Shown here piece by piece: positions 1,631 to 31,367 of a DNA stretch of 32,000 nt. The notes below the pieces were generated by a model. The model was not told the DNA's origin. It ran no database searches and saw only the letters and a program-made list of their open reading frames with translations. Each line of letters begins with the position of its first letter. The first letter of the stretch is position 1. The DNA lies in NCBI RefSeq assembly GCF_021054785.1, contig NZ_CP088239.1, positions 360,001 to 392,000 of the forward strand, written 5' to 3'. This DNA comes from Tannockella kyphosi (GTDB lineage Bacteria > Bacillota_I > Bacilli_A > Erysipelotrichales > Coprobacillaceae). The position numbers were made by a program, and so were the translations under genes.

Positions 1631-2926
1631 TTGATGGATATAGTCATTTTATTAGTTTTTGCTTTTGGAGAAATGTTTTTATGTTTGTTGTTATGTGATG
1701 TATTTTTGAAGTATAAAGATACAAAGTTAGGGACAAAGATTATTTTGTCTGTTGTTTATGGTGTAATGATGCACTATGTGGGTGTGGTTGATAATAATGG
1801 TATTTTTTCATTTGTAATCTTTTTGTTTTGTTTATTTGTTTATGGTTATTTATCAACGGGGACAAATTTTAGAAAAATAATAATGACAGTATTTTTGGTT
1901 GCAGTGAATTTAATGGTTATTAATGCATTATTTTTGGTATTAGCGTTTTTAAGTGCGGAATCAACTACTAGTTTGTTGAATGGTACAGAATCAGAGGTGC
2001 TAAATTTTTATACATTGTTAAGTAAAGCAGCTTTATATTTTGAATATTTATGTTTGAAACAAAGAAATTCAAATCAAGTCTATTTTGATCAAATAGTATG
2101 GAAATGGGTTGCTTGTATTAGTGTTACTTCTTTAGTTATTTGTCATATTTGTTTTTATGAATATATTCAAAATAATATGAATTTATTTTCTACTTTCTCA
2201 GTTTTTATAGGAGCAATTGTGACAAATATATTAGTTTATGTTTTATGTATGGAGTTATCGAATAGTGCTAGGGAAGGAGTAAGAAAACAAATATTGATTG
2301 AAGCAATTCGTTATGAACAACAATCACAAATAGAAATGGAGAGTTTAGTTGATAAGATGTCAAAGATAAGCCATGATTTTGATAAACATATTTTGGTTAT
2401 TGAAGATATGATTGATAAAAATGATACATGTTTGGCAAAAGAATATTTGAATAAAATAAAGCTATCTTCTAGACAAGTGGTTTTTAATACCAATAGTAGT
2501 GTTTTAAATTATATGTTAAGCAATAAAGTGAGTTATGCTAAAAACTTAGGAATTGATGTTCATTATATGGTGTTTGGTCATGAGGTTAGTTATATAGATG
2601 ATGTTGATATGACAGGGTTGGTAGGTAATTTGTTAGATAATGCGATTGAAGCAGCAGGGCAGTCTAAAGAAAAACAAATTGAATTACGATTTGATTTTCA
2701 AGATGAACATGTTTCTACATTTTTAGTGAAAAATAGTTTAAATCATGAAATAAAGAAGAATGGTAAAAATCTTGTTACTACCAAAGCTGATAAACAGGGT
2801 CATGGGATAGGGATGAGCGTTATTCAAGAAATAGTAGAAAAATATCAGGGACAAGATTATTATCAAATAGAAGAGAATCAGTTTTCTCATTTGTGCATAT
2901 TGTTAGATAATGAAAAGATAGCTTAG
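1631..2926 (+). CDS. agrC: AgrC-type (HPK10) membrane sensor histidine kinase
   Basis: About 6 N-terminal TM segments. H-box ISHDFDKH, N-box GNLLDNAIEA, G-box GHGIGMSVIQEI. GGAGG lies at 1623-1627. The ATG at 1634 is an equally good start as the TTG at 1631. Confidence 0.8.
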   Translation: MMDIVILLVFAFGEMFLCLLLCDVFLKYKDTKLGTKIILSVVYGVMMHYVGVVDNNGIFSFVIFLFCLFVYGYLSTGTNFRKIIMTVFLVAVNLMVINALFLVLAFLSAESTTSLLNGTESEVLNFYTLLSKAALYFEYLCLKQRNSNQVYFDQIVWKWVACISVTSLVICHICFYEYIQNNMNLFSTFSVFIGAIVTNILVYVLCMELSNSAREGVRKQILIEAIRYEQQSQIEMESLVDKMSKISHDFDKHILVIEDMIDKNDTCLAKEYLNKIKLSSRQVVFNTNSSVLNYMLSNKVSYAKNLGIDVHYMVFGHEVSYIDDVDMTGLVGNLLDNAIEAAGQSKEKQIELRFDFQDEHVSTFLVKNSLNHEIKKNGKNLVTTKADKQGHGIGMSVIQEIVEKYQGQDYYQIEENQFSHLCILLDNEKIA

Positions 2927-3010
2927 TTTTTTGTAGTTTGTTTTCTGGTTTTGGAAAAAAACTTTTTTTATTTGGGAATGGTGTATAGTTTGGTAAGGGA
3001 GAGTGAGATC

Positions 3011-4183
3011 ATGGATAAAAAAACAAATAAAGTATTAGATATAAAATATATTGCTATCCAAATATTTTATTTAATGAATTATTGTGCAATGTTGGGATAT
3101 GCTTCGGTTTATTTATTAGAATTAGGGTTTAGTAATGGACAAATAGGGATTAGTTTAGCAATGTCTAGTGTGGTTAGTGTTATTTGTCAGCCAATTATTG
3201 CGTCTTTTGTAGATAAACATAGAGAGGTTTCTTTAAATACTGTTATTAAAATAGCTTTAACATTAGTTGTAATAGCTTCTGCTATTTTATATTTCTTATC
3301 TTTGGATAAAATAGTATTAATTGTATTACATGCTTTTGTTTTAGTGATATTACTGACATTACAACCACTTATTAATTCCATTGCTTTTGGTTTTGAAAAA
3401 CAAGGCTATGTATTGAATTTTGGTCTTGCTAGAGGGATGGGATCAGTGGCTTATGCTTTCACTTCTTTGGGATTAGGTATTTTATTAGAATCAGTATCAG
3501 CAACTATTTTGCCATTATGTTATATGGTGATAAGTATGATCTTGTTTATGTTTATTCATACTTTTGCCCTAAAACAAGAAAATATAGTAGAAAAAGAAGT
3601 AGTAAGTCAATTAAGTTTGTTAGGTTTTGTAAAAAAATACAAACGAGTAATGATTGTATTAGCAGGAGTAGTATTTGTTTATTTAGATCATGCTATTATT
3701 AACAACTTTTTTATCCAAATTGTAACAAATGTTGGTGGTACAAGTTCTAGTATGGGGAAAGCAATCTTTTTAGCGGCAATGTTAGAATTACCGACAATGA
3801 CTTTCTTTACCTTGTTTTTAAAGAAAATAAAATGTAGCAATCTATTTAAAATAGCAGTAATATTCTTTTCTATAAAGCATGTGATTACTTACTTAGCATC
3901 AAGTATGTTTGTTATTTATATAGCCCAAGCTACACAAATAGCAGGGTATGCATTGTTTATACCGGCTTCTGTTTATTATATGAATGAAGTAGTTGAAAAT
4001 AGTGATTTAACGAAAGGACAAGCGATGTTAACAGGGGCAATTACGTTAAGTAATGTGTTTGCTAGTTTAATTGGAGGAATCTTGTTAGATGCGTATGGAG
4101 TAAGTACTGTTTTATTAATAGGAGCTGTTGGTTCGATTATAGGAACAGTTATTGTATGTATGGGTTTAGTCAGCATCAAGTAA
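3011..4183 (+). CDS. MFS-type transporter (12-TM-like)
   Basis: Highly hydrophobic multi-TM protein with MFS-like organisation. I prefer the ATG at 3011, preceded by GGGAGAGTGAG, over the ORF-track TTG at 2951. Confidence 0.6.
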   Translation: MDKKTNKVLDIKYIAIQIFYLMNYCAMLGYASVYLLELGFSNGQIGISLAMSSVVSVICQPIIASFVDKHREVSLNTVIKIALTLVVIASAILYFLSLDKIVLIVLHAFVLVILLTLQPLINSIAFGFEKQGYVLNFGLARGMGSVAYAFTSLGLGILLESVSATILPLCYMVISMILFMFIHTFALKQENIVEKEVVSQLSLLGFVKKYKRVMIVLAGVVFVYLDHAIINNFFIQIVTNVGGTSSSMGKAIFLAAMLELPTMTFFTLFLKKIKCSNLFKIAVIFFSIKHVITYLASSMFVIYIAQATQIAGYALFIPASVYYMNEVVENSDLTKGQAMLTGAITLSNVFASLIGGILLDAYGVSTVLLIGAVGSIIGTVIVCMGLVSIK

Positions 4184-6131: not shown

Positions 6132-6159
6132 TTGACATTGTATGGAATATCTCTATAAT
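6132..6159 (+). promoter_or_regulatory. Sigma-A-type promoter of the pilus operon leader
   Basis: TTGACA (6132-6137), 16-nt spacer, TATAAT (6154-6159), directly upstream of the first riboswitch. Confidence 0.65.
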
Positions 6160-6175
6160 AAAGGGTGTAAAGTAT

Positions 6176-6256
6176 ATCAACCAAAGGTAAAACTATCGTG
6201 AGATAGTGACACAAAGCTATAGGGACTCTGTGGGGGAGTCAGCCAGTTACAATCCA
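6176..6256 (+). promoter_or_regulatory. c-di-GMP-I (GEMM-I) riboswitch aptamer, copy 1
   Basis: GGTAAAAC-TATC-GTGA(GNRA)-GATAG-TGACACAAAGCTATAGGGACTC-tgtgggg-GAGTCAGCCAGTTAC. This matches the GEMM-I architecture: GGYAAA, a GNRA-capped P1b, GACRCAAAGC, a P2 hairpin, then AGCC.G.UAC. Confidence 0.8.
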
Positions 6257-6287
6257 TATCATAAATGATTTGATATAGATTTTTTTA
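6252..6287 (+). terminator. Expression-platform terminator of riboswitch 1
   Basis: ATCCATATCA / TGATATAGAT stem (9 of 10 bp) with a 9-nt loop, followed by T7. Confidence 0.55.
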
Positions 6288-6366
6288 ACTAATAAAATAG
6301 GTAAAGCCATCGCAAGGTGGTGACACAAAGCTATAGGGACTCGGGGGAGTCAGCCAGTTGCAAACG
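6288..6366 (+). promoter_or_regulatory. c-di-GMP-I (GEMM-I) riboswitch aptamer, copy 2
   Basis: GGTAAAGCCATC-GCAA(GNRA)-GGTGG-TGACACAAAGCTATAGGGACTC-gggg-GAGTCAGCCAGTTGC. The core is identical to copy 1. The P1b stem differs but keeps its pairing through compensatory changes. Confidence 0.8.
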
Positions 6367-6403
6367 AGAATGATATTATTCTAGGTTTGCATTTTTTATT
6401 TTG
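6359..6403 (+). terminator. Expression-platform terminator of riboswitch 2
   Basis: TGCAAAC-g-AGAAT-gatatt-ATTCT-ag-GTTTGCA followed by TTTTTTATTTT. The 5' arm overlaps the aptamer's 3' end (CAGTTGCA). Confidence 0.75.
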
Positions 6404-6433
6404 AAAATCAAATTAAACCGGAGGTGAAGGGCC

Positions 6434-8653
6434 ATGAAAAATTATACTAGAAAATCACATAAATATACGGATGCAACAAGAGTGTTATTACTTTGTATGT
6501 TAATAGCCCTGGGATCTGTTATCGGTAATAATAAGATGTATGCAGATGAATTAAATGGAACTGCATCAATGGATATTACTCTTCTTGAAATAGAGGGTAT
6601 TACGTTTGATGTAGATATTGAATTAGTTTTCCTTATTGGTGACAATTATTATTGGGGTGCTCAAGAACAAGTTAATGCGGTTGAGGTATATGTAAATGGT
6701 GAAATAGTTGAACAATCATTTGTAGCTGGTCAATACGATGATACATTTGAAAGTGCTGGTTATAAATTATCATTAACAGATGTAGCAGCTGGGGCCCTTA
6801 TCGAGGTTAGAAATGTTAGTGTAGAATTACTCGATGATTGGGATGGTTCAATTATTGATGGGGCTAAAACAGCCGTCACAGTAACAAGCAGTGATGAAAA
6901 CTTCCCACTTGATATTACAAATGATGGTGTCGGAGAATTCTCATCAACTGAAGCATTAAATTTTGATGTCACTTTAGAAATAACAAATAGGCTGGAAACA
7001 GAAACAGACCAAGATACAAATTATACATCGGATACTTTCTTAACAACTGGTGGAAGTTACGATTTAGAATACTTATTATCACATTATAATGTGATTTCTA
7101 GAAACGATATAGTGGCTACTCATATTGTTGGACCTATTATTGCTGGAGCTTCAGTATATTACCATTCAGATGATGAAATAGGTTCGGATACGGTAACACC
7201 AACAGCAAGTATATCAGTTTCGGATTATGCAAAAGGAATTTCAAGTTTTATTGGTGATTTACTACCCCTAGATGCAGGGTGGGAAGTAACTTCTACCGCT
7301 TTATTAACTTATGGTTTCGAAAATACAGATGCTGGATTTGTTCTTCCTGCTTTCTATACTACTCTTAGCGATGTGTTTATTAGCTTAGGTGAGGAAACAT
7401 GGACTCAGTGGTATGTTACAAAAGATGATGTAACTTTCAAATCTCCAAACTATTCTGCTCAAGGAGATATTTATCAAAATGATTATTATGTAGATTTTAG
7501 TGAGATGTATGGTTCTATTTTAGCACAAGGTGAGGATTTAGTGGATGAAGGGTCTATTGAAGGGCAACAAACAACTGTTGTTCAAGTTACGCCAGCTGAT
7601 TATGTAGATGGAGTATTAACAATAGATGCAGAAAAAAGTTATACAATTTTAGATGCTACTGGATTAGATACAATTCGTATTAATTATCCTGAAGATTACG
7701 ATGATGAGACTAATAATTATTTGGATGCAACAACAGTAAGTTTTGCAGGTGATAATTTAAGCAAGATTACATTAGATGATGGTGAAACATATTCTATTTT
7801 CCCAGTTATCGAACTTTATTTAAATGGAGAAAAGATTGTAAATAGTTATGGTAGTGGGGGTAAAGGTGTTGAATATGGAGAACAAGGAAATCAAATTGTC
7901 TTCAATTTACCTTATGTTACTGGAAGTATGGTTCTAGGTGATCAAAATGATGATATTCAAGGACATATCATTGCTCCTAATGTTGATTTATATCGTTATG
8001 CTTTTACAGGTACAACGATAACAGGATGGGGTGGAGGAAATATTAATGGTTGTGTAATCGTTAATGACTTCCATAGTGGAGAAACAGAATTACATATGTT
8101 CCCATATACTGGAACTGAAATGCAAATGATTGAAGTTATTATTGAAGGTGATAAAACATTTATTGATGGTGACTTATCAGATATGAGTTTTGATTTTATA
8201 TTAGAATTAGTAGACGAAAGTCAAGAAAGTGATTTTACAGCTGGGATTTTCCCATTAACAGCTACAACGGATGCACAAGGGAACTTTGTGTTTGATGATA
8301 TAGAATTCTCAAAAACAGGTACATATGAGTTTATGATTAGTGAAGTAATACCAGATAGTACTGGTAGTGTTATCTATGACCAAAGTGTTTATATGGTTAC
8401 TGTAGATATTACAATTACAAATAGTCAGTATGTATCGAATGTAACTATTAGTAAAGTAGTAAATAGTGAAGGAGAACAAGTTAGTGAAAGTGTTGATACT
8501 ATCTATTTTGAAAACAGTATAGATCAACCAAGTTATGAAGACTTTGTTTTACCTAACACAGGAGGTTTTGGGGCTTTGCATTATTATGTTTTAGGAATTA
8601 TGGTTATAGGTTTATCAATCATTCTTAAAAAAGAGGAAAGAGGAGGAAATTAG
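6434..8653 (+). CDS. LPXTG-anchored large pilus-associated adhesin (probable tip pilin)
   Basis: Signal peptide, and a C-terminal LPNTG + hydrophobic segment + KKEERGG sorting signal. The central region resembles the choice-of-anchor A domain (YNVISRNDIVATHIVGPIIAG...GHIIAPNVDL...NINGCVIV). The C-terminal region looks like a pilin isopeptide-linkage domain (FDFILEL...GTYEFMISEV...YDQSVYMVTVDI). RBS GGAGGTG. Confidence 0.75.
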   Translation: MKNYTRKSHKYTDATRVLLLCMLIALGSVIGNNKMYADELNGTASMDITLLEIEGITFDVDIELVFLIGDNYYWGAQEQVNAVEVYVNGEIVEQSFVAGQYDDTFESAGYKLSLTDVAAGALIEVRNVSVELLDDWDGSIIDGAKTAVTVTSSDENFPLDITNDGVGEFSSTEALNFDVTLEITNRLETETDQDTNYTSDTFLTTGGSYDLEYLLSHYNVISRNDIVATHIVGPIIAGASVYYHSDDEIGSDTVTPTASISVSDYAKGISSFIGDLLPLDAGWEVTSTALLTYGFENTDAGFVLPAFYTTLSDVFISLGEETWTQWYVTKDDVTFKSPNYSAQGDIYQNDYYVDFSEMYGSILAQGEDLVDEGSIEGQQTTVVQVTPADYVDGVLTIDAEKSYTILDATGLDTIRINYPEDYDDETNNYLDATTVSFAGDNLSKITLDDGETYSIFPVIELYLNGEKIVNSYGSGGKGVEYGEQGNQIVFNLPYVTGSMVLGDQNDDIQGHIIAPNVDLYRYAFTGTTITGWGGGNINGCVIVNDFHSGETELHMFPYTGTEMQMIEVIIEGDKTFIDGDLSDMSFDFILELVDESQESDFTAGIFPLTATTDAQGNFVFDDIEFSKTGTYEFMISEVIPDSTGSVIYDQSVYMVTVDITITNSQYVSNVTISKVVNSEGEQVSESVDTIYFENSIDQPSYEDFVLPNTGGFGALHYYVLGIMVIGLSIILKKEERGGN

Positions 8654-8654
8654 A

Positions 8655-10256
8655 ATGAAAAAATTATTAAAAGTATTGCTTGTAGCATTTGTTTTTCTAA
8701 CAAGTATGACAGCAACAGGTGTTTCGACATTTGCAACGACAAGTGGAGATATCGTAGTAACAAATGATCCTGCAGAAACATCAATTACGATTGTAGGGAA
8801 AGATTTTGCAGCTTATCGTATTTTCGATATTACTGTAGGTACAAATGATGATGGAGATACAGTAATTACTAGCTGGGATTTCAATGGTGATTTTGGAGAT
8901 TTCTTCACAGGCACTATGATTGGTGAAGATGCTAATGAATATGTATTCACAGATTTAGATGACGATGCTAAAGTTGGTCGTGCTCTTGAATTAGTAAATA
9001 CTTATGCAGATAACATGACAGCATTTTATGAATTAATGACTGCATTTATTGATGCAAATGGGATAACTGCAGATTATACATTAACTGGAGCAAAAGCAGG
9101 TAACTTAGATACTGAAGAAGCAGTTGCTAGTGACGTAGAATTAGGTTATTATATTGTTGTAGATACTACTGCTGAACCAGGTGTAGATGGAATTGTTGTT
9201 GCAGGTATGATGGATACTGTAACTGGTGATTTAGATATCGCAATTAAATCATTCGCACCAACTGTTTCTAAACAAATTAAAGACAATGATGATGATTCTT
9301 GGCAAGATGTTGCTGATAACCAAATCGGAGATGATGTAGAGTTCTTATTAACAGGTACTTTACCTTCATTAAATAACTTAGAAGCTTATTCTAGCTACTA
9401 CTATGCAATGACAGATACATTAAGTGAAGGATTAAGTTATAATGATGGAACTATCGTTATTTATACAGATTATACAGCGGGAACAGTTTTAGATTCAGAA
9501 TATTATAGTTTATCAGTAAATGAAGAAAATGATGGATTTACTGTTGAATTCAATGTAGAAGATATCGTAACAGATACTTCAGCTTCTCATGTATATGTTT
9601 ACTATACAGCTGAATTAACAACAAAAGCAGCTTTAGATTTTGATAAAAATACAAATACTGTAGTATTAGATTTCAGTAATAATCCTTATGATTCAAGTGA
9701 TAAAGGACAAAGTGAAGATGAAGTTTATGATTATACATTTAGTTTAGATGTTTTCAAAACTACTGCAGATGGAGAAACAGCATTAGCTGATGCTACATTC
9801 GCATTATTTGAAGGTGATGTTCAAATTAACTTAATTTTAATAGATGAAGAAACTAACACATATGCTATTTACGATGGTGAAGCTGCTGATTTAGAAAACG
9901 GTGGACAAATCGTTACTGATGAAACTGGTTTATTTACTATTGTTGGTTTAGATGATGTTAAAACTTATACAATTAAAGAAACTGCTGCTCCTGAAGGATA
10001 TAATGCAATTGATCCAATTGAATTTGTGATTAGTGCAACATATAATGAAACAACAGGTGCTTTAGAAACATTAGTAACTGACAGTGCTTATATTAGTGAA
10101 ACAGATTTAGCAATTACTATTAGAAATACTACAAACTCTTTATTACCTTCAACAGGTGGTATGGGTACAGTGATTTTCTATGGTGCAGGTGCAGTGATTA
10201 TGGTTGGTGCAGTTGTATTATTCTTAAAAAGCCGTAAAGAAGAAGAAAAAAATTAA
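8655..10256 (+). CDS. Major (backbone) pilin, LPXTG-type
   Basis: Signal peptide and a pilin-motif-like FAPTVSKQIK. E-box YTIKETAAPEGYN. LPSTG + TM + KSRKEEEKN sorting signal. Adjacent to a class C sortase. Confidence 0.8.
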   Translation: MKKLLKVLLVAFVFLTSMTATGVSTFATTSGDIVVTNDPAETSITIVGKDFAAYRIFDITVGTNDDGDTVITSWDFNGDFGDFFTGTMIGEDANEYVFTDLDDDAKVGRALELVNTYADNMTAFYELMTAFIDANGITADYTLTGAKAGNLDTEEAVASDVELGYYIVVDTTAEPGVDGIVVAGMMDTVTGDLDIAIKSFAPTVSKQIKDNDDDSWQDVADNQIGDDVEFLLTGTLPSLNNLEAYSSYYYAMTDTLSEGLSYNDGTIVIYTDYTAGTVLDSEYYSLSVNEENDGFTVEFNVEDIVTDTSASHVYVYYTAELTTKAALDFDKNTNTVVLDFSNNPYDSSDKGQSEDEVYDYTFSLDVFKTTADGETALADATFALFEGDVQINLILIDEETNTYAIYDGEAADLENGGQIVTDETGLFTIVGLDDVKTYTIKETAAPEGYNAIDPIEFVISATYNETTGALETLVTDSAYISETDLAITIRNTTNSLLPSTGGMGTVIFYGAGAVIMVGAVVLFLKSRKEEEKN

Positions 10257-10300
10257 TTAAAAGAATATAAAACATATTAGGGAACATGAGGGAGAGTCCA

Positions 10301-11161
10301 ATGAAGAAGAAGAGTTCGACAATTGCATTTGCTTTGTTATTCATTGTTGGTCTTTCCATCATGCTATACCCTAGCTTTTCAAATTTTTACAACAGTTTAT
10401 ATTGTTCACAAGCAATAACTGCTTACCAAGAAGTAATCGAATATCAAATTGAAAACGCAGAAGAACTTTTTGAAGAAGCAAGAGAGTACAATTCAAAGAT
10501 AGTGGAAGGCGCTAGTCAGTTTATTAGTGGAGAACCTTACAATATCGATTATATAAATGCATTTGATATTTACAATGGTATGATAGGATATTTAGAAATT
10601 GATGAAATTGATGTTTCACTACCTATTTATCATGGAACAGCGGAATCAGAATTATCAAGAGGTGTTGGTCATTTAGAGGGATCATCTTTGCCTACTGGTG
10701 ATATTGGTACGCATACTGTATTAAGTGGACATACGGGATTACCGTCTGCTGATTTATTAACAGATTTAGATGAATTAGAAATTGGTGATACGTTTACATT
10801 ACTGATTTTAGATGAAGTATTTACTTATGAAATAGTAGAAATAAATGTTGTATTACCTTCTGATACCTCGTATCTAGGAGTACAAGCTGATAGGGATTTA
10901 GTAACATTGATTACTTGTACACCTTATGGTGTAAATTCACATCGTTTATTAGTTATGGGAGAACGTATTGAAACTCCTGAAGAATATTATACAGAACATG
11001 TTAGTAATAATACTTTTGTATTATTCCAATTAGTGATTTTTATTGTTGTAATCTTGTTTATTTTGTTAATAGTGGTTATAATAAAGAAGAAAAAGAGAAG
11101 TAAAAAACAAAGAGAATTTATTCAAGAAGAAGGGAGCTTAAATGATGAAATATCTACGTAA
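10301..11161 (+). CDS. srtC: Class C (pilin-polymerising) sortase
   Basis: VLSGHTGLP (His), TLITCTPYG (Cys), NSHRLLV (Arg), a lid-like GEPYN, an N-terminal TM and a C-terminal TM anchor + KKKKR. I prefer the ATG at 10301 (after GAGGGAGAG) over the ORF-track 10286. Confidence 0.85.
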   Translation: MKKKSSTIAFALLFIVGLSIMLYPSFSNFYNSLYCSQAITAYQEVIEYQIENAEELFEEAREYNSKIVEGASQFISGEPYNIDYINAFDIYNGMIGYLEIDEIDVSLPIYHGTAESELSRGVGHLEGSSLPTGDIGTHTVLSGHTGLPSADLLTDLDELEIGDTFTLLILDEVFTYEIVEINVVLPSDTSYLGVQADRDLVTLITCTPYGVNSHRLLVMGERIETPEEYYTEHVSNNTFVLFQLVIFIVVILFILLIVVIIKKKKRSKKQREFIQEEGSLNDEIST

Positions 11162-12167
11162 AGCATTTGTAGCAGTTGCTTGTTTATTAGTATGTTTAAT
11201 AAGTGTGGTAAATGTTGAGGCAATGGGTTTAATTGATACTTCAGCCCAAGGATCGATTACAATTAAATATAGTTATGATGATATTGAATTAAGTGGTATT
11301 ACTTGTAAAGTTACCCAAGTAGCTACAATCTCATCTTATGGTGAATACTCTGCAACAGAGAAGTTTGATGGTTTGCCTATGGCAGATGATTATTCTTCGA
11401 ATGAAGAATGGAGCGACTATAAAGATACGTTAGGTGTCTTAATGAACGCTAATTTAATTGAATCTGACTATACTGTAGTAACCAATGAGTATGGATATGT
11501 TACGCTTAGTGGTTTGGCTACTGGATTATATATTATTGAATTTGAAGATTTAACGATTTTAAGTGAAGATGGATTGGTGGAAACAACTTATAGTAGCGAT
11601 ACTGTTTTAGTTTCTGTACCAACTTATGATGTTGTTACTGGTGAATATAGTTATGAACAAACTACAGCACCAAAAGTAGTGATGACAGAAAATGAAGTAG
11701 AAGTTTATGAAGAACCAGAATTGATTTCTGTTTCTGTTAATAAGATTTGGGAAAATGATAATTTATTTAATATTCGACCTACTACAGTAGAAGTTACTTT
11801 ATATTGTGATGGTCAAGTGTATGATGTTATTAATCTAACAATTGAAGATGCTTGGACATATACTTGGGAAGATTTAGATCCTGAATGTGTATGGGCAGTA
11901 TTAGAGACTAGTGTGCATGTTGGATATGAAGTGGGTTATGAAGTTGTAGGAAACATTCATATTATTAAAAACAGTTTCAAATATGATGATGTATTATCTT
12001 ATGAAGAAGATTTTCCAATTATTGATGATGTATTGAGTTTTGAAGAAGAAATTCCTCAAACTGGGGTTGTGCTTTGGCCAATGCAAGCTTTAGCAGCGGT
12101 TGGCGTATTCTTAATAAGTGCGGGACTTATCATAGAAAAACGTGGGAATCATGAAAAAAAGCGCTAA
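11142..12167 (+). CDS. Minor pilin with a CnaB-type domain and an IPQTG sorting signal
   Basis: Signal peptide. CnaB-like VSVNKIWENDNLFNIRPTTVEVTLYCDGQ. C-terminal IPQTG + TM + EKRGNHEKKR. Its start overlaps the sortase stop. Confidence 0.7.
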   Translation: MMKYLRKAFVAVACLLVCLISVVNVEAMGLIDTSAQGSITIKYSYDDIELSGITCKVTQVATISSYGEYSATEKFDGLPMADDYSSNEEWSDYKDTLGVLMNANLIESDYTVVTNEYGYVTLSGLATGLYIIEFEDLTILSEDGLVETTYSSDTVLVSVPTYDVVTGEYSYEQTTAPKVVMTENEVEVYEEPELISVSVNKIWENDNLFNIRPTTVEVTLYCDGQVYDVINLTIEDAWTYTWEDLDPECVWAVLETSVHVGYEVGYEVVGNIHIIKNSFKYDDVLSYEEDFPIIDDVLSFEEEIPQTGVVLWPMQALAAVGVFLISAGLIIEKRGNHEKKR

Positions 12168-12738
12168 ATTATTAATTGTTTCTGGTGCTATTTGTATTTG
12201 TGGTGCTATTGGTTTATTTGCAAAAATGCAAATAGAAAATGCTGCAACAAGTAGTGAAAATTCAGCAGTTACGGATGACTTTAATGCTTATCTGACAACG
12301 CTAGATGGAACAGAAATAAAAGAAGTAGATACGACACAAAACAATGAAAGTGTTTATATTGATGGTGATTTATATTTAGGAATCATTATAATAGAGTCAG
12401 TAGGTATTGAATTACCTGTAAACTATGAATGGACAGATGCAAAATTGAGTTCTTCACCTTGTTATTATGATGGATTGCTTTATGAAGATACTCTTATTAT
12501 TGGTGGACACAATAGTTCTATTCATTTTGGACCACTTCATCAAGTGGAATTAGGTGATATTGTTGAATTTATTGATCCTTCTGGCACAGTACATACATAT
12601 ACAGTTACTGAAAGTTATGTTATTGCTGAAACAGAAGTAGAAGAATTGAAAGATATTGGTGATAGTGATTTAACACTATTCACTTGTTATAGTGATAATA
12701 GTTATAGAAGGGTTATTCGTTGTGAACGAATAAGCTAA
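12151..12738 (+). CDS. Second, small sortase (not class C-like)
   Basis: N-terminal TM, GGHNSSIHF (His), LTLFTC (Cys), YRRVIRC (Arg). The ATG at 12151 lies inside the ORF-track ORF 12142..12738. Confidence 0.7.
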   Translation: MKKSAKLLIVSGAICICGAIGLFAKMQIENAATSSENSAVTDDFNAYLTTLDGTEIKEVDTTQNNESVYIDGDLYLGIIIIESVGIELPVNYEWTDAKLSSSPCYYDGLLYEDTLIIGGHNSSIHFGPLHQVELGDIVEFIDPSGTVHTYTVTESYVIAETEVEELKDIGDSDLTLFTCYSDNSYRRVIRCERIS

Positions 12739-12777
12739 GAATACTATTTTAATGCAAAAGAGCTTCTCCTCTAATTT

Positions 12778-12813
12778 AAACAAAAAACAAGTCGGCTAAC
12801 TTGTTTTTTGTTT
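12778..12813 (+). terminator. Strong intrinsic terminator ending the pilus operon
   Basis: 15-bp perfect stem AAACAAAAAACAAGT / ACTTGTTTTTTGTTT with loop CGGCTA. Confidence 0.8.
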
Positions 12814-12848
12814 ATAGAGGTTTTTTAAAATTAAGTAGTGTGTTTAAG

Positions 12849-12877
12849 TTGATTATATTGATTTAATCAACTATAAT
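12849..12877 (+). promoter_or_regulatory. Promoter of the GGDEF-EAL gene
   Basis: TTGATT (12849-12854), 17-nt spacer, TATAAT (12872-12877). Confidence 0.5.
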
Positions 12878-12922
12878 TTACTTATATGTTTGTACATACA
12901 ATCTTGGGGAGGAGTGGTATGA

Positions 12923-15508
12923 ATGAAGAAGATACTATTTATTTTTGTAATTTGTTTTGCAATTATTTTTTCGAATTTTACTGATATTGAAGCTGCTCCT
13001 ATTCAAACGATAAAAATAGGATATGTTTTAGAGTCAGACTATGAATACACTTATAATTATAGTAGCTATTATCGTTTGATAGTTGATTATTTTGGAGATA
13101 TATATGATGTTTGTGGTAAAGAGTTTGAGTTTGTAGCAATTGATAAAAGTGATTTATTTACAAGTTTAGTAGAAGATGAAGTTGATATTGTAGCATTGTC
13201 TATTAAACCAGAATTTGTTAATGAGTATACTGAGGTTGAAGATAGTTATGTAGAGTCTAAATATATGCTATCTTATGATTCGATAACAAATATTGATTTA
13301 GGGGCTTTTGATGCTTTTACTTTGGATTCTAATACTAATTTAATTGAAACGCTAGAAGCTGCTGCAATTACTTTAGGAACAGATGATGAGGATTATTATA
13401 CGGATTTAATTGATATTTATTTTAATCAAAACTATGATGATTTTGATGTTTTAACTGCTGATGAATGGGAAATATTATCTACAAAAGAAGAATATATCGT
13501 TGCTTATGAATCAGATCATTTTCCTTTTAGCTATACTAATAATATGGGTGAAGCAGATGGTATTTCAGTGGATTTAATGGATGAGATTGCTAGTTATGCA
13601 GGGATTGATATACGATATGTCTGTGATGGCGAAATTGATAATGAGTTTGTGGATATTAATCTTTCTATTTTTGAAAGCAGTTCTATTTCTTATCATAATG
13701 ATGAGAGTGTTGTTTATGTTACTTTTCCATTGGTGGCAGTGGGTAGTGAACGTTTTTATTCGTCTGATGGATATTCATTTGGTTATTTAGATTATACTTT
13801 CTATCTTGAAAATACCGAGGTGTTACCTGATGATAGTATATTATTTGAAAATTATGAAACTTTAGAAGATGCATTGTTTAATGGGGAAGTTGATTATATT
13901 CTTGCAACAAGTGCAATGGCACAGAGTGTTTTAGAAGCTGTTGATGGTGATTATATTATTACTCCTTTAGGGGTAGAGTTTGATGTTACTATGTCTTATT
14001 CTAAATTTTTAGATGAAAGAATTGTTAGCGTTTTTAATAAATTATTAAGTTCTTTAGATTCTGATTTAGTTTATACGATTGTTATTAATTCTATTGCTGA
14101 AAATAATACTTCTTTTACTTTGATGGATGTGGTAGTAACTTATCGATTTGAGATAGCTGCTAATTTGTTTATTAGTGCGGTTGTTATTATTTATTTATAT
14201 CAAAGGAATAGAAAGAAATTATTAGATCAAATATATGTTGATCCTCTTACTGGATTTATGACGGAAAAGAAATTTTTTGTAGAAGCAAAGAAAATTTTAG
14301 AACTAGGAAAACCAGGTTATAGTATTGTTTCTTTTGATATAGATAATTTTAAATATTTAAATGAAACGGTAGGTTATGAAGGTGGTTCAAAACTTATTAA
14401 ATTAACTGCTGATCATATTCGTCATGCTTATGGACCTGATACTTTAATAGCACGTATTTATGGGGATCAATTTTTGGTATTGACCGATAAAGTCTATAAT
14501 GGGAAAACAATTTGTGGAAAAGATAAGTGCGAAGGTTGTATTACAGATTCTTTACGTGAAGTACTATTTAATGAAACGATTTTAAAGACTAGTGTTGGTA
14601 TATATGATATTAAGAATACGGAAGAATCATTATCGTATATGGTTGATTGTGCACATATTGCAAGAAGAATGGGGAAAGGTACTTATGCCCATACTCGATT
14701 TGTGTTTGATGAACAAATGGAGGCTGAATTAAAAATAAAGAATCGTATTGTTGCTGCGATGGAAGGGGCTATTCAAAATAATGAGTTCTTCCCAATGTTC
14801 CAACCAAAGTTTGACTTTAAAACTGGTCAAATTATTGGTTGTGAGGCATTAGTACGTTGGGATTATCATGGTGGTATGTTACCTCCTGATAGTTTCATTC
14901 CTTTGTTTGAACAAAATGGTTTTATTAATGTAGTTGACTTCTTTATCTTAAAAGAAGCTTGTCGAGTTATTCGCTCGATGGAAAATAAAGTCAAAATTGC
15001 TGTTAATATTTCAGGTGTCACGCTATTACAAAAAGGAACAACTCATAAAATTATTACGATTTGTGATGTATATGAGATAGATCATCAATATATTGAAATA
15101 GAAATCACAGAAAGTGCATTTACTTCTAATTATGAGGAAATGATAGTGAAGGTAAATAATTTAAGAGAAGCTGGATTTAGTGTGGCAATGGATGACTTTG
15201 GTTCTGGATTATCATCGTTAAATAGATTGAAGAATTTAAAATTTGATGTTTTAAAAATTGATAAGCAATTTTTAGGGGATTCCCTATCAACTGATCAAGG
15301 CTATGCTATCGTTAAGAGTGTTGTGATGATGGCAAAAGATTTAGAACTAATAATTGTTTGTGAAGGTGTTGAAACAAAAGAACAAGCTAATCTTCTTAAA
15401 GGGTTAGGTTGCGATATTGCCCAGGGATATTATTATTCAAGGCCTTTATTGGAGCAGGATTTTATGGATTTAGTGTATGAAGATGTTAAGTTTACTTCGA
15501 ATAAATAA
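12923..15508 (+). CDS. Membrane sensor c-di-GMP phosphodiesterase (two SBP-like domains, TM, degenerate GGDEF, EAL)
   Basis: Signal/TM segment, then two family-3 solute-binding-like modules (IKIGYVLESDY...; YIVAYESDHFPFSYTNNMGEADGISVDLMDEIA). One TM follows. The GGDEF domain is degenerate: DPLTGFMTEKKF and YGDQF in place of GG[DE]EF. The EAL domain keeps all catalytic motifs: CEALVRW, VNIS, EITES, DDFGSG, KIDKQF, EGVET, QGYYYSRP. Confidence 0.85.
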   Translation: MKKILFIFVICFAIIFSNFTDIEAAPIQTIKIGYVLESDYEYTYNYSSYYRLIVDYFGDIYDVCGKEFEFVAIDKSDLFTSLVEDEVDIVALSIKPEFVNEYTEVEDSYVESKYMLSYDSITNIDLGAFDAFTLDSNTNLIETLEAAAITLGTDDEDYYTDLIDIYFNQNYDDFDVLTADEWEILSTKEEYIVAYESDHFPFSYTNNMGEADGISVDLMDEIASYAGIDIRYVCDGEIDNEFVDINLSIFESSSISYHNDESVVYVTFPLVAVGSERFYSSDGYSFGYLDYTFYLENTEVLPDDSILFENYETLEDALFNGEVDYILATSAMAQSVLEAVDGDYIITPLGVEFDVTMSYSKFLDERIVSVFNKLLSSLDSDLVYTIVINSIAENNTSFTLMDVVVTYRFEIAANLFISAVVIIYLYQRNRKKLLDQIYVDPLTGFMTEKKFFVEAKKILELGKPGYSIVSFDIDNFKYLNETVGYEGGSKLIKLTADHIRHAYGPDTLIARIYGDQFLVLTDKVYNGKTICGKDKCEGCITDSLREVLFNETILKTSVGIYDIKNTEESLSYMVDCAHIARRMGKGTYAHTRFVFDEQMEAELKIKNRIVAAMEGAIQNNEFFPMFQPKFDFKTGQIIGCEALVRWDYHGGMLPPDSFIPLFEQNGFINVVDFFILKEACRVIRSMENKVKIAVNISGVTLLQKGTTHKIITICDVYEIDHQYIEIEITESAFTSNYEEMIVKVNNLREAGFSVAMDDFGSGLSSLNRLKNLKFDVLKIDKQFLGDSLSTDQGYAIVKSVVMMAKDLELIIVCEGVETKEQANLLKGLGCDIAQGYYYSRPLLEQDFMDLVYEDVKFTSNK

Positions 15509-21642: not shown

Positions 21643-21647
21643 GATTG

Positions 21648-21860
21648 TAGCGATGAATAGAAGGAGTACTTTGGTATCTTTAGTAGAGAGTTCTTGGTTG
21701 GTGAAAAAGAACAAAGGGAACAAAGGAAGGTAGTCTAGGAGCTTGTTTGGTGAACTAATAGTAATTAAACACGTAAAACTGCGTTAAAGTTTAGAGGCAT
21801 AAATATTATGCAAAGTAAGGTGGTACCACGAACATTCGTCCTTATGACGGGTGTTTTTTT
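21648..21860 (+). promoter_or_regulatory. T-box riboswitch leader (tRNA-sensing)
   Basis: Stem I K-turn CGATGA, specifier-loop AGGAGTA, AG bay AGTAGAGAG, distal loop GGTTGGTGAAA. T-box sequence AAGGTGGTACCACG (21817-21830). Terminator CGTCC-ttat-GACGGGTG + T7. Confidence 0.85.
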
Positions 21861-21880
21861 ATTTTAAGGAGGAAAATAAA

Positions 21881-22522
21881 ATGGATTCAACAGATTTTTC
21901 AGTATTATCAATGTTTATTGCAATGGCAATATTTTTAGGTATTTTTTATTTTTTACGTATTCGCCAAATTCAAGCTGAGAGAAAAGCTAGAGCACGTATG
22001 GTGTTAGAGAGAAGAAAAAAATTTGCGAATATTACATTAGATATGTTTGATGAAATAGAAAGAAAAGAGTTACCAGAAATGGTTATCTACAGTATTCTTG
22101 CTAAAGATGAAAAAAGATTTGATGGTGAAGAAATAGATGATACACCAATCATGGAGATGTTAAGTGAAGCAGAGAGAATGGTTTTTACTATTTATCAAGT
22201 AGAATCTTGTTTATCAGGGAAAAATAGTTCTATTCATAGTTTCTTTTTAGAAGAATACTTTGCACCATATATCCCTTATTTAACACCGGCTTTTGATGTA
22301 ATGAACTGTCATGAAATTTCAAAGTTATTAGAATCAGCTAAGAAACTAGCAGAAATTATTGAAAGTGATAGTGAAGAAGAAGTAGGTGGAGATTATGAAT
22401 CTTATAACTTTGGAGATTATACGAATGAGTTATTAAGCTTAATGAAATCTTCTGCATTAGTTAAGAATACAGCAGAATATATCTATGAAAACAAGGAACA
22501 ATTTGTAGAAAAGGAAGATTAA
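21881..22522 (+). CDS. Hypothetical single-pass membrane protein, co-transcribed with valS under the T-box
   Basis: The ATG at 21881 follows AAGGAGG (21866-21872). One N-terminal TM ([18 protein letters not shown]), then an acidic soluble domain. It ends 1 nt before the valS start. The ORF-track GTG at 21851 lies inside the T-box terminator. Confidence 0.6.
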
Positions 22523-22523
22523 A

Positions 22524-25139
22524 ATGAAAAAAGAATTAGAAACAAAATATGATCATAAAAAAGTAGAAGCAGGAAAATATCAACAGTGGTTAGATAAGAA
22601 ATACTTTGAAGCAGGAGACAAAACAAAAACTCCTTATACAATTGTAATTCCACCACCAAATGTAACAGGTAAATTACACTTGGGACATGCATGGGATACA
22701 ACACTTCAAGATATGATTATTCGTTACAAACGTATGCAAGGTTTTGATGCCTTATATTTACCAGGTATGGATCATGCTGGGATTGCAACACAAGCAAAGG
22801 TAGAAGAAAGATTACGTCAAGAGGGTATTTCAAGATATGATTTAGGACGTGAAAAGTTCTTAGAACAAGCTTGGTCTTGGAAGGAAGAGTATGCTGGACA
22901 TATTCGTGAACAATGGGAGAAGTTAGGATTATCTTTAGATTATTCAAAAGAACGTTTTACATTGGATGAGGGGTTAAGTGAAGCTGTAAAAGAAGTATTT
23001 ATAACGTTATATGAAAAAGGATATATTTATCAAGGTAAACGTATTATTAACTGGGATCCTGCACAACGTACAGCACTTTCTAATATTGAAGTTATTCATA
23101 AAGAAATTGAAGGAGCAATGTATTATTTTAAATATCAAGTAGTTGGTAGTGATAAAGAATTAATTATTGCAACTACAAGACCGGAAACAATGTTTGCAGA
23201 TCAAGCTATTTTTGTTCATCCTGATGATACTAGATATACTGATTTGGTTGGTAAAAGTGCAATTAATCCAGCAAATGGAGAAGCGTTACCAATTATGGCT
23301 GATAGTTATATTGATATGGATTTTGGGACTGCTGTCATGAAATGTACACCAGCACATGATCCAAATGACTTTGCTTTGGCAAAAAAATATAATTTAGAAA
23401 TGCCTATTTGTATGAATGATGATGGAACTATGAATGAGATGGCTCATAAATATTGTGGAATGGATCGCTTTGATTGTCGTAAACAATTAGTGGAAGATTT
23501 CCAAGAGGCAGGTGTAGTGGATCATATTGAAAAACATATGCATCAAGTTGGTCATTCTGAACGTTCAAATGCCATCGTAGAACCATACTTATCAAAACAA
23601 TGGTTTGTTAAGATGGAACCATTAGCAAGAGAAGCATTAGAAAATCAACAAAGAGATTCAAAAGTAAACTTTGTACCAGAACGTTTTGAAAAAACATTTG
23701 GACAATGGATGGAGAATATTGAAGATTGGTGTATTTCAAGACAATTATGGTGGGGACATCAAGTACCTGCTTGGTACCATAAAGAAACAGGAGAAGTCTT
23801 TGTAGGGAAGCAAGCTCCTAGTGATATTGAAAATTGGAAACAAGATGAAGATGTATTAGATACATGGTTTTCAAGTGCTTTATGGCCATTCTCTACTCTA
23901 AATTGGCCAAATACAGAAGATGAATTATTTGAAAGATATTTCCCGACAGATACATTAGTAACGGGATATGATATTATTTTCTTCTGGGTAAGTCGTATGA
24001 TTTTCCAATCGTTAGAATTCACAAACCAAAGACCATTTAAACATGTTTTAATCCATGGTTTAATTCGTGATGAAAAAGGTCGTAAAATGTCAAAATCTTT
24101 AGGGAATGGTGTTGATCCAATTGATGTCATTGAACAATATGGAGTAGATACATTACGTTTCTTCTTAACTACAAATTCAGCTCCAGGTATGGATTTACGT
24201 TATACTCCTGAAAAATTAGAATCTTCATGGAATTTCATTAACAAAATTTGGAATTCAGCACGTTTTGTTTTAATGAATATGGATGAGGAAATTGGATATA
24301 ATGATTTATGTTTTGATAATTTAAATTTATGTGATAAATGGATTTTAAATCGTTTAAATGAAGTAATTAAAGAAGTAGATACAAATATGGATAAGTTTGA
24401 ATTTGTAAATGTAGGAAGTTCTTTATATTCATTTATTTGGGATGATTTCTGTTCTTGGTATATTGAGTTAGCGAAAGTTCATTTACAAAATGAATCAGTT
24501 AAACAAGCTACTTTACATACACTTATTTATGTTTTAAATGCGATTGTAAAAATGTTACATCCATTTATGCCTTTTGTAAGTGAAGAGATTTATCAAGCAA
24601 TTCCACACGTAGAAGAATCAATTTGTATCTCTTCTTGGCCAGTAGTAAAACAAGAAAATAATTTTGAAGGAATTCAAGATCAATTTACATACTTAATGGA
24701 TATTATTAAAGGTATTCGTGAAATCCGTGCCCAATATACAATTAAGAATGCAATTGAAATCACATATAGTATTGATACAAAAGATACTACTTTAGAAACT
24801 TTACTTGATGTTTGTGTTCCTTATATCAAAAAAATGTGTAATGCTACTTGTTTAGGATATAATAAGGAAACTAGTGGAGATATTGCAAGTCTTACTATTA
24901 AAGGTGGTAATTCTTTAATTGTAGAGTTAGGTGCTTATGTAGATAAAGAAGCAGAAAAAGTAAAACTAGAAATACAACAAAAGAAGTTAGCTCAAGAAAT
25001 CAAACGTTGTCAAGGAATGCTTTCTAATGAGAAATTTGTTTCTAAAGCACCAGCTAGTAAAATAGAAGAAGAAAAGAAAAAATTAGAAGAATATCAATTA
25101 AAATACCAATCGGTAGAAGAAAAGTTATCTTCAATGTAA
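22524..25139 (+). CDS. valS: Valine--tRNA ligase
   Basis: HIGH motif [17 protein letters not shown], an editing domain and a C-terminal coiled coil. 871 aa. Confidence 0.97.
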
Positions 25140-30634: not shown

Positions 30635-30725
30635 CTATGTTGTAGACCTCTAGACTACAACCGCACATAAAAGGTATTAAAGCAATGCTGCCTTGGTTGG
30701 CGAGTCTTAGAATATTATAGGAGGT
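30635..30725 (+). promoter_or_regulatory. Ribosomal protein L21 leader-like structured 5' UTR
   Basis: GTTGTAGAC-ctc-tAGACTACAAC hairpin plus downstream pairing (GCTGCC...GGCGAGTC) ahead of the RBS AGGAGGTG. Its position matches the Firmicutes L21 leader. Confidence 0.5.
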
Positions 30726-30730
30726 GCGAT

Positions 30731-31039
30731 ATGTACGCAATTATCGAAACAGGTGGAAAACAATTAAAAGTAGAAGCTGGAGACGCTATCTTTGTAGAAA
30801 AGTTAGAAGTTGAAGCAGGAGAAAAAGTAATTTTTGATAAAGTTTTATTAGTTGGAGATACAACTACTAAAATTGGTGCTCCTTATGTTGCAGGTGCAAC
30901 AGTAGAAGCTACTGTTGAAAAACAAGGTAAAGAGAAAAAAGTTACTATCTACAAATATAATGCAAAAAAACATTATCATAAAAAACAAGGTCATAGACAA
31001 CCTTACACTAAATTAGTTATCGACGCTATTAACGGGTAA
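30731..31039 (+). CDS. rplU: 50S ribosomal protein L21
   Basis: [18 protein letters not shown]... canonical L21. Confidence 0.97.
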
Positions 31040-31049
31040 TTAATTTATT

Positions 31050-31367
31050 ATGATTGATGTAATCATCAAAAAAACAAATAAGAACATTTCTGAAATCACG
31101 ATTAGTGGTCATGCAAATAGTAGTGAATACGGTACAGATTTAATTTGTGCAGGTGTTTCTGCAATTAGTGTGGGGATACTAAATAGCTTAGTGGCAAATG
31201 ATTTTTTAAATCAAGGTATTTTAGAAATGAAAGAAGGATATATATCTATTGTTGTAAATAGTGTTGATCAAACTTGTCAAGTGATACTAGAGACTCTTGA
31301 AATTAGTTTAGATACAATACTTGAAGGCAATCAGAAATTTATTTCAATAAATAAAATGGAGGTGTAA
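31050..31367 (+). CDS. prp: Ribosomal-processing cysteine protease Prp (YsxB family)
   Basis: Located between rplU and rpmA. GHA...DLICAGVSA motif with the catalytic His/Cys. Confidence 0.85.
   Translation: MIDVIIKKTNKNISEITISGHANSSEYGTDLICAGVSAISVGILNSLVANDFLNQGILEMKEGYISIVVNSVDQTCQVILETLEISLDTILEGNQKFISINKMEV

Follow-up and report, generated by a model that had tools for sequence, protein, structure and literature searches.

How does a gut bacterium decide whether to build surface pili, and can an RNA that senses a second messenger make that decision for a complete pilus operon? These questions are raised by a 32,000-nucleotide (nt) stretch of the genome of Tannockella kyphosi (contig NZ_CP088239.1, positions 360,001 to 392,000), called the window below. 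Within 6132-15508 of the window lie a leader with riboswitches for cyclic di-GMP (c-di-GMP), a five-gene operon for sortase-assembled pili (tip adhesin, backbone pilin, class C sortase, minor pilin, and small second sortase), and a gene for a membrane-bound sensor phosphodiesterase. This three-part anatomy is that described in an earlier note on the same DNA, which had read the parts as a circuit in which an external ligand sets the phosphodiesterase, the phosphodiesterase sets the c-di-GMP level, and the riboswitches set pilus production. The explanation that we favor, with moderate confidence, is that tandem ON switches gate the pilus operon and that the sensor phosphodiesterase is a separate unit beside them. 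Riboswitch gating of the operon, which the earlier note had also claimed, is well supported, both by the architecture of the expression platforms and by c-di-GMP riboswitches that stand before this operon in other organisms as well.

Two c-di-GMP-I riboswitches in series

The promoter at 6132-6159 is the only perfect sigma-70 consensus in the region, and the aptamers lie just downstream of it; transcription of the pilus leader is expected to start near 6166. The leader has the following features.

6132-6159, + strand: sigma-70 promoter TTGACA-16-TATAAT; 12/12 consensus match, the top site in the region scan
6176-6254, + strand: c-di-GMP-I aptamer 1; RF01051, 53.2 bits; GNRA loop GUGA; G6186 (equivalent to Vc2 G20); C6250 (equivalent to C92)
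6251-6286, + strand: terminator 1; stem AAUCcAUAUCA / UGAUAUaGAUU at 6251-6281, then a U-run to 6286; hairpin -5.5 kcal/mol
6290-6365, + strand: c-di-GMP-I aptamer 2; RF01051, 55.6 bits; GNRA loop GCAA; G6300; C6361
6360-6402, + strand: terminator 2; stem GCAAACgAGAAUG / UAUUCUagGUUUGC at 6360-6390, then AUUUUUUAUUUU; U's at 6392-6402; hairpin -10.0 kcal/mol

Both aptamers matched the RF01051 (GEMM-I) model over its full length (1-87) and about 20 bits over its gathering score of 35 bits, which bears out the tandem c-di-GMP-sensing leader of the earlier note. In minimum-energy folds and partition functions, terminator 1, whose 5' arm shares nucleotides with the 3' tail of aptamer 1, had an arm pairing probability of 0.6-0.87; for terminator 2, whose 5' arm starts at the conserved GC of the aptamer tail, the probability was ~1.0. 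No open reading frame (ORF) was found on the + strand between 6160 and 6433. Because each aptamer has its own hairpin and U-run immediately 3' of it, we concluded that the leader, 6176-6402, consists of two complete c-di-GMP-I riboswitches in series, the arrangement of tandem complete riboswitches with their own terminators that has been called "pseudo-cooperative" (PMC9481103).

The two riboswitch units are diverged direct repeats with a spacing of 114 nt, and their aptamer cores (6185-6363) are 84-95% identical. The P2 stems of the two units have diverged through compensatory changes, and the terminator sequences show no relationship to each other, which points to an old duplication kept by selection. 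When the Rfam helices were scored over the two window aptamers and that of a related locus, L019, 98% of the cells were paired and seven pairs were changed on both sides; slid-register controls gave only 26-53%. This test used a three-sequence alignment (A2), as a four-sequence MAFFT alignment had misaligned the 3' half of L019.

The GEMM-I fold includes variants that bind cyclic GMP-AMP (cGAMP) (PMC9481103), and the aptamers might on that ground be thought to sense another dinucleotide, for example 3'3'-cGAMP. We consider this extremely improbable. A G at the position equivalent to Vc2 G20 is a determinant of specificity for c-di-GMP over cGAMP (PMC9481103), and both window aptamers, read off the Rfam alignment, have G and not A there; moreover, the Rfam family that they match best is c-di-GMP-I.

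Riboswitches at related pilus loci

Related loci were taken from three sources: 45 from a profile scan with one genome per species, 80 from metagenomes (in 30 clusters), and 8 from a look-up of the closest proteins. The window pilin is only 35-38% identical to its nearest relatives. The order tip, backbone, class C sortase, minor pilin, and small sortase is kept in L001, L005, L006, L007, L019, L126/127, L131, and L132; all five proteins are detectably homologous across these syntenic loci, with the class C sortases 45-56% identical. Rfam scans at the gathering threshold covered the 45 genome loci, the 8 look-up loci, and 13 metagenome cluster representatives; outside them fell representatives L102, L110, L112, and L122, those with too little upstream sequence, and redundant cluster members. 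Rfam was used instead of a crude regular expression for the GEMM-I core, which missed even L019.

These scans placed c-di-GMP riboswitches before the operon in four further loci from three organisms. Locus L126, from a fish-gut metagenome, has a class I aptamer (54.3 bits) 65 nt 5' of the tip gene; L019, from an Oscillospiraceae metagenome-assembled genome (MAG), also has a class I riboswitch before the operon; and L005 and L006, paralogous loci of one Peptostreptococcaceae MAG, have class II riboswitches, single in L005 and tandem in L006. Two unrelated aptamer folds thus serve homologous operons with the same predicted logic.

Two observations count against the favored explanation. None of the 13 metagenome cluster representatives scanned had a c-di-GMP riboswitch, and the close relatives L001 and L131 carry a histidine kinase and response regulator upstream instead. 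Similarly, c-di-GMP riboswitches were absent from about 75 more distant relatives wherever the leader was searchable, including the human-gut loci searched. The kinase (His_kinase, PF06580) and response-regulator pair lies directly upstream of the operon at 4276-6908 in L001 and 2788-5477 in L131, and L126 combines a response regulator alone (2861-3709) with its riboswitch. As relatives carry a kinase/regulator pair, a regulator alone, or a regulator together with a riboswitch, the regulatory input of this pilus operon family varies.

Two minor features were seen at these loci. A type I signal peptidase gene (Peptidase_S26) is the first or second gene of the operon in the riboswitch-controlled loci L006 (3215-3796) and L019 (2681-3259), and the window operon is without one; these genes recall the streptococcal pilus-associated signal peptidases of the SipA/LepA type. 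Matches to the pemK RNA motif, unrelated to c-di-GMP control, occur near human-gut pilus loci (L074, 1-96, - strand; L082, 3774-3883, + strand).

Polarity of the switches and proposed mechanism

For the polarity of the switches, each riboswitch unit was folded without a ligand term. When the 3' arm of the terminator was forbidden, no alternative helix captured the 5' arm, and the cost was 6.1 kcal/mol for unit 1 and 11.2 kcal/mol for unit 2; overall, forbidding terminators in the apo folds cost 6-15 kcal/mol. An anti-terminator, which would support an OFF switch, was sought by constrained folding of the leader units and none was found. Termination is therefore the default in these folds and the ligand could only prevent it, which is the behavior of an ON switch. 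Provided that the switches function at all, we consider it likely from this modeling that both are ON switches and that high c-di-GMP would lead to pili.

Several features of layout are in agreement with ON polarity. In unit 2 of the window, in L126 (GCAAAU...), and in L019 (GCCGAUG...), the conserved aptamer tail GC(A/C) marks the exact start of the terminator's 5' arm. In unit 2 the junction consists of G6360 and C6361, of which the latter corresponds to C92 of Vc2, a residue that pairs with the ligand (PMC11705072). The first terminator comes after about 120 nt, a compact layout that matches Bc2 of Bacillus thuringiensis, a proven class I ON switch whose target is an LPXTG adhesin and whose terminated transcript is 121 nt long (PMC4933901). 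The class II leaders of L005 and L006 have the 3' strand of P1 inside the 5' arm of the terminator, which is clearly an explicit ON design.

The opposite polarity was also considered. In that case c-di-GMP would promote termination, pili would be made at low c-di-GMP, and the phosphodiesterase would activate the operon. Some of our own findings and one body of published work leave room for it and so weigh on the ON assignment. The class I riboswitches tested in Clostridioides difficile are OFF switches with one exception (PMC6200980). Neither inspection by eye nor constrained folding gave a convincing P1 helix between the sequences on the two sides of each window aptamer, so that the physical basis of terminator exclusion is only partly defined. 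In addition, terminator 1, at -5.5 kcal/mol, is weak. However, the apo folds already hold both terminators at high probability without an anti-terminator helix, leaving an OFF switch no other state from which to switch. The overlap of the terminator arm with the ligand-contacting tail, the explicit ON design of the class II switches before homologous operons, and the ON behavior of the class I switch Bc2, with its equally compact layout (PMC4933901), all argue in the same direction, and we regard OFF polarity as unlikely. A pairing of UGUAA with UUACA was examined as a possible P1; it is a weak AU-rich option that clashes with P3 and was not relied on.

With ON polarity as the preferred assignment, we propose the following mechanism. 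A single strong promoter would make a leader with two independent riboswitches in series. Without c-di-GMP both terminators would form, and transcription would halt before the operon; bound c-di-GMP would hold the 3' tail of the aptamer, a stretch that doubles as the 5' arm of the terminator, and RNA polymerase would read through. Because both gates would have to be open, leakage would be low and the response to c-di-GMP steep (pseudo-cooperative). Read-through would express a self-sufficient sortase pilus kit, in which the class C sortase would join the tip adhesin and the backbone pilin through their LPxTGG signals, and the basal pilin (IPQTG) would probably be handled by the small second sortase. 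High c-di-GMP would then give piliated, adhesive cells. The neighboring gene, transcribed separately, would provide an outward-facing sensor of the solute-binding protein (SBP) type together with an active EAL phosphodiesterase, its dead GGDEF domain being perhaps regulatory. By lowering c-di-GMP the phosphodiesterase would close the gates, although its dedication to this operon is something that we infer.

The pilus operon

Five co-directional, tightly packed genes at 6434-12738 were identified with Pfam and NCBIfam, in line with the five-gene sortase-pilus operon of the earlier note. They and their terminator are listed here.

6434-8653, + strand: tip adhesin-type pilin, 739 amino acids (aa); signal peptide; FctA isopeptide domain (Pfam 7.4e-10); LPNTGG sorting signal
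8655-10256, + strand: major (backbone) pilin, SpaH/EbpB, 533 aa; NF033902, 104.4 bits against a cutoff of 95; E-box YTIKETAAPEGY; LPSTGG
10286-11161, + strand: class C (pilin-polymerizing) sortase, 291 aa; NF033745, 236.8 bits against a cutoff of 160; TLITC motif; C-terminal membrane anchor
11142-12167, + strand: minor pilin, 341 aa; Cna_B (Pfam 3.3e-11); non-canonical sorting signal IPQTG
12142-12738, + strand: second small sortase, 198 aa; Pfam Sortase, 8.1e-14; TLFTC motif
12768-12826, + strand: operon terminator; 22-pair hairpin, stem 12768-12820, U6 at 12821-12826; free energy -23.9 kcal/mol

From these families the operon is predicted to encode a complete sortase-assembled pilus kit. The tip protein is homologous to the product of the first large gene of the syntenic operons. 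The major pilin also matches the GramPos_pilinBB and SpaA domains, and a 100% identical Tannockella kyphosi protein is labeled by NCBI as SpaH/EbpB major pilin. A canonical YPKN pilin motif was not found in it; K198 and K206 (..IAIKSFAPTVSKQ..) are invariant across a 24-sequence alignment of the family and are candidates only. The minor pilin is probably the basal pilin. The second sortase scored under the cutoff for all NCBIfam class models, and it is probably dedicated to the minor pilin with its PQTG signal.

The two products of the 3' end of the operon behave as a pair in the loci compared. In 8/9 minor pilins from syntenic loci the signal is [LI]PQTG followed by a residue other than G (L132 has PLTG), and the tip and backbone pilins of these loci carry PxTGG. 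A small sortase of about 200 aa, with a TLFTC motif and outside the NCBIfam classes, always follows the minor pilin in the compared loci, and it holds the same position in L001, L006, L007, L019, L127, L131, and L132. The distinct signal of the minor pilin and the constant presence of the small sortase next to it suggest a dedicated sortase-substrate pair for anchoring the base of the pilus.

The earlier note had ended the operon with a strong terminator at 12778-12813. The strength of the terminator was confirmed (z score -7.16; 0/200 shuffles were as stable), and its extent was corrected to 12768-12826.

A near-identical Tannockella contig from a fish-gut run, L130, gave one further observation on the operon proteins. 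Its tip adhesin (121-2343) is 96% identical to that of the window (6434-8653) and one residue longer; its other four operon proteins and its phosphodiesterase are 98.5-100% identical to those of the window. The tip protein may, on this comparison, be diversifying faster than the other operon proteins.

A predicted sensor phosphodiesterase downstream of the operon

Two further features lie 3' of the operon terminator.

12849-12877, + strand: promoter-like site TTGATT-17-TATAAT; 10/12 match
12923-15508, + strand: membrane sensor phosphodiesterase gene, 861 aa; Pfam EAL 220.9 bits, GGDEF 47.1, SBP_bac_3 36-39

A strong ribosome-binding site, GGGGAGGAG, precedes the ATG at 12923. With topology judged from hydrophobic segments, the protein begins with a signal sequence or first membrane helix, followed by an SBP_bac_3-like region (~aa 26-400), a second helix (~aa 405-430), a degenerate GGDEF domain (aa 438-580), and an EAL domain (aa 613-841). 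When it was aligned with MorA (PDB 4RNH, E 3e-51), the EAL motifs EALVR, N, EITE, DDFGSG, KID, EGVE, and QGY were all intact, and YGDQF stood where MorA has GGDEF. Because all the EAL motifs are present and the GGDEF motif reads YGDQF, the product is predicted to be an active phosphodiesterase with a catalytically dead GGDEF domain; going by these motifs, it should not be filed as a cyclase. The earlier note had described a separately promoted membrane protein with EAL as its sole intact catalytic domain, and the promoter-like site and the state of the two domains agree with this.

That note had also given the protein extracytoplasmic ligand-binding domains, a claim which stood in part. The SBP_bac_3 match (36-39 bits) is above the Pfam cutoff of 26.4, but its best stretch covers only profile positions 2-43 of 132, and the extracytoplasmic region (~375 aa) gave weak matches, with E 0.003-0.9, to amino-acid-binding proteins in the PDB. 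An exact-sequence look-up of the phosphodiesterase gave no match, and the only full-length homologues found were P0121 (an identical Logan sequence) and P0122 (29% identity).

The combination of a degenerate GGDEF domain, an EAL domain, and a periplasmic domain resembles LapD, and there were weak matches to the NCBIfam LapD model and to FimX in the PDB, so that the protein might instead be a c-di-GMP receptor of the LapD/FimX type, relaying c-di-GMP levels across the membrane rather than acting as an enzyme. Unlike LapD and FimX, however, it has every catalytic EAL motif intact; the LapD model gave 89.9 bits against a cutoff of 1020; and the best PDB matches were to the phosphodiesterases MorA and DosP. 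We consider a receptor of this type very unlikely and rejected it on the intact EAL motifs.

Relation of the phosphodiesterase to the operon

EAL and GGDEF hidden Markov models were run against all ORFs of 125 loci (L001-L125), and the 8 look-up loci were covered by precomputed Pfam annotation. Among about 80 distinct related loci, the only EAL or GGDEF matches besides the window's own gene were in L006 and L007, and the Pfam annotation of the 8 look-up loci held no further ones. In L006 the order is an intact-looking GGDEF cyclase gene, a class II riboswitch, a gene for a degenerate GGDEF plus EAL protein, the tandem riboswitches, and the operon; the GGDEF-EAL protein is 27% identical to the window protein across both domains. 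In L007 a gene for a sensor cyclase (membrane segments, HAMP, RLGGDEF) starts 29 nt after the second sortase, in the slot that the phosphodiesterase occupies in the window; the leader of L007 is off the contig.

The upstream region of L006 has an arrangement of its own. Within 58-2797, 18 nt separate the end of the cyclase gene from a c-di-GMP-II aptamer (1155-1238), which precedes the GGDEF-EAL gene (1272-2513), and c-di-GMP may there control its own phosphodiesterase in negative feedback. The leader at 1155-1238 has a hairpin beside the ribosome-binding site and no U-run, and this riboswitch may therefore act on translation.

Against these two cases stands the possibility that the window phosphodiesterase is a mere neighbor that serves the global c-di-GMP pool or another output, with no dedicated relation to the operon. 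Its gene has a promoter-like site of its own, and the very strong terminator (-23.9 kcal/mol) lies in between; these two elements insulate it from the operon, so that it is not on the riboswitch-controlled transcript. The nearest full-length homologue, P0122, is only 29% identical, and its contig, L134, shows no pilus operon and is too short for neighbors. The available sequence of the riboswitch-bearing loci L019, L126, and L005 contains no GGDEF or EAL gene, and neither does that of the ~75 other distinct loci, L007 excepted. The dedication of the enzyme is also made less secure by the lack of a GGDEF or EAL ORF in any of the 80 metagenome loci and by the lack of a visible diguanylate cyclase in the 32-kb window. 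On the other side, few relatives show c-di-GMP features, and in two of these few, turnover genes adjoin the operon, upstream in L006 and in the downstream slot in L007. A turnover gene was near 2/5 riboswitch-bearing loci and 1/~75 others (hypergeometric p ~0.009), a count which includes the window, is biased by its selection, and treats L005 and L006 as separate although they are not independent. As the window was chosen for this very feature, it was then excluded, and the enrichment (1/4 against 1/~75, p ~0.1) lost significance. L130, the contig that encodes P0121 and the sole close relative, shares the gene order of the window, but its leader is cut off; as it comes from practically the same strain, it is uninformative on conservation. 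Taking both sides together, we consider a mere neighbor about as probable as its negation.

A functional link between phosphodiesterase and operon is thus plausible with some comparative support, and it is suggestive only, because genes for c-di-GMP enzymes flank the operon in just two other loci. The circuit of the earlier note accordingly held for riboswitch gating, while its phosphodiesterase input rests mainly on adjacency, with a terminator and a promoter between the genes and a p of ~0.1. Its proposed check, co-occurrence of the whole arrangement in relatives, came out in the same divided way: riboswitch and operon recur together in four loci, but enzyme genes only at L006 and L007.

A broader idea, which we find possible but doubtful, is that this operon family has repeatedly acquired a portable local c-di-GMP module, with riboswitches of both classes, all predicted to be ON switches, some of them tandem and some accompanied by turnover enzymes that are dedicated inputs. 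If so, whether the cells make pili would depend on an external ligand: the SBP-like domain would sense it, and RNA would directly read the private c-di-GMP signal that results. The turnover enzymes would be specific to lineages: a sensor phosphodiesterase in the window, a sensor cyclase in L007, and a cyclase plus riboswitch-preceded phosphodiesterase in L006.

Comparison with known systems

The closest known relative in design is the Bc2-cap/CbpA system, in which a c-di-GMP-I riboswitch controls an LPXTG collagen adhesin in B. thuringiensis and B. cereus (PMC4933901, PMC7423583). Both systems have a class I aptamer directly before an intrinsic terminator with a terminated product of about 120 nt, and both act on an adhesive surface protein that is anchored by sortase and has Cna_B/isopeptide domains. 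Bc2, however, is a single riboswitch before a single adhesin gene served by the housekeeping sortase, whereas the window has two riboswitches in series before a pilus operon with its own two sortases; and ON polarity was measured in Bc2 but is predicted in the window.

Tandem arrangements are also well known. Doublets of c-di-GMP-I riboswitches are the commonest tandem arrangement (347 cases), and class II doublets and triplets lie mostly before genes for surface-anchor proteins (COG4932) in Paraclostridium and relatives (PMC9481103); a triple tandem, Bc3-5, has been described as well (PMC4759541). The window resembles the surveyed tandems in having two complete units with their own terminators, no ORF between, and a surface-protein target, and L006 very likely is the Peptostreptococcaceae class II COG4932 type of locus in that survey (PMC9481103). 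It differs in being class I and from Erysipelotrichaceae. The survey gives only a COG for the first gene; a sortase pilus operon as the target is not described in it, nor are neighboring turnover enzymes mentioned.

In C. difficile, c-di-GMP-II riboswitches precede CD2831 and CD3246, which encode sortase substrates, and pilA1, for type IV pili (PMC6200980). There, too, c-di-GMP turns on adhesins or pili in a Firmicute through riboswitch read-through; but the riboswitches are class II, the adhesins are single sortase B substrates that are not polymerized, and the pili are type IV and not sortase-assembled.

As a pilus, the window system is like the SpaA/RrgB/BcpA type in its backbone pilin with E-box and LPxTG signal, tip adhesin, basal pilin, class C sortase, and isopeptide domains. 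To our knowledge, the characterized systems of this type are controlled by protein regulators, whereas control in the window would be by an RNA sensing a second messenger; the window also differs in the conserved [LI]PQTG signal of its probable basal pilin and the small, probably dedicated sortase in the operon. The phosphodiesterase resembles MorA, DosP, and PdeA (CC3396), which are GGDEF-EAL tandems with an active EAL domain, an activity that is predicted for the window protein. In PdeA the degenerate GGDEF serves as a regulatory domain. The sensor of the window protein differs from theirs in being an extracytoplasmic region that resembles an amino-acid-binding protein.

Full-text literature searches returned no paper linking c-di-GMP riboswitches with sortase-dependent pili as such. 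The earlier note had called such control "less documented", a fair description where sortase pili themselves are concerned, but surface-anchor genes preceded by tandem c-di-GMP riboswitches (PMC9481103) and the ON switch Bc2 (PMC4933901) are already known. What is added is incremental: the regulated unit is a full pilus assembly operon, both riboswitch classes serve one operon family, and turnover genes sometimes co-localize with it. Current understanding is not overturned. The value lies in a well-defined example, which would add a complete sortase-assembled pilus machine to the single adhesins and type IV pili already placed under c-di-GMP riboswitches, and in the comparison of class I and class II at homologous operons. 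The locus offers a compact system for asking how tandem class I ON switches sharpen the decision whether to adhere, whether the operon acquired its two riboswitch classes in independent events, and whether a neighboring sensor phosphodiesterase is a local input to an RNA effector.

Host and surroundings of the locus

Tannockella kyphosi is a hindgut bacterium of Kyphosus sydneyanus, a herbivorous fish, and its name appears in papers on the gut microbiota of Kyphosus; the host of the module is an Erysipelotrichaceae gut symbiont of this fish. Upstream of the module lie genes for a LysR regulator and a DUF3196 protein, and downstream the core genes tig and lon. Base composition gave no sign of recent horizontal transfer, the module having a GC fraction of 0.30-0.33 and the flanks 0.27-0.34.

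Across the full 32-kb window, Rfam scanning gave four RNAs above threshold, two of which are the c-di-GMP-I aptamers. The others are a T-box leader at 21644-21846 (141.3 bits), directly 5' of ORFs 21851-22522 and 22524-25139 (871 aa), and a ribosomal protein L21 leader at 30649-30717 (53.7 bits), 5' of small ORFs at 30731-31039 and 31050-31367.

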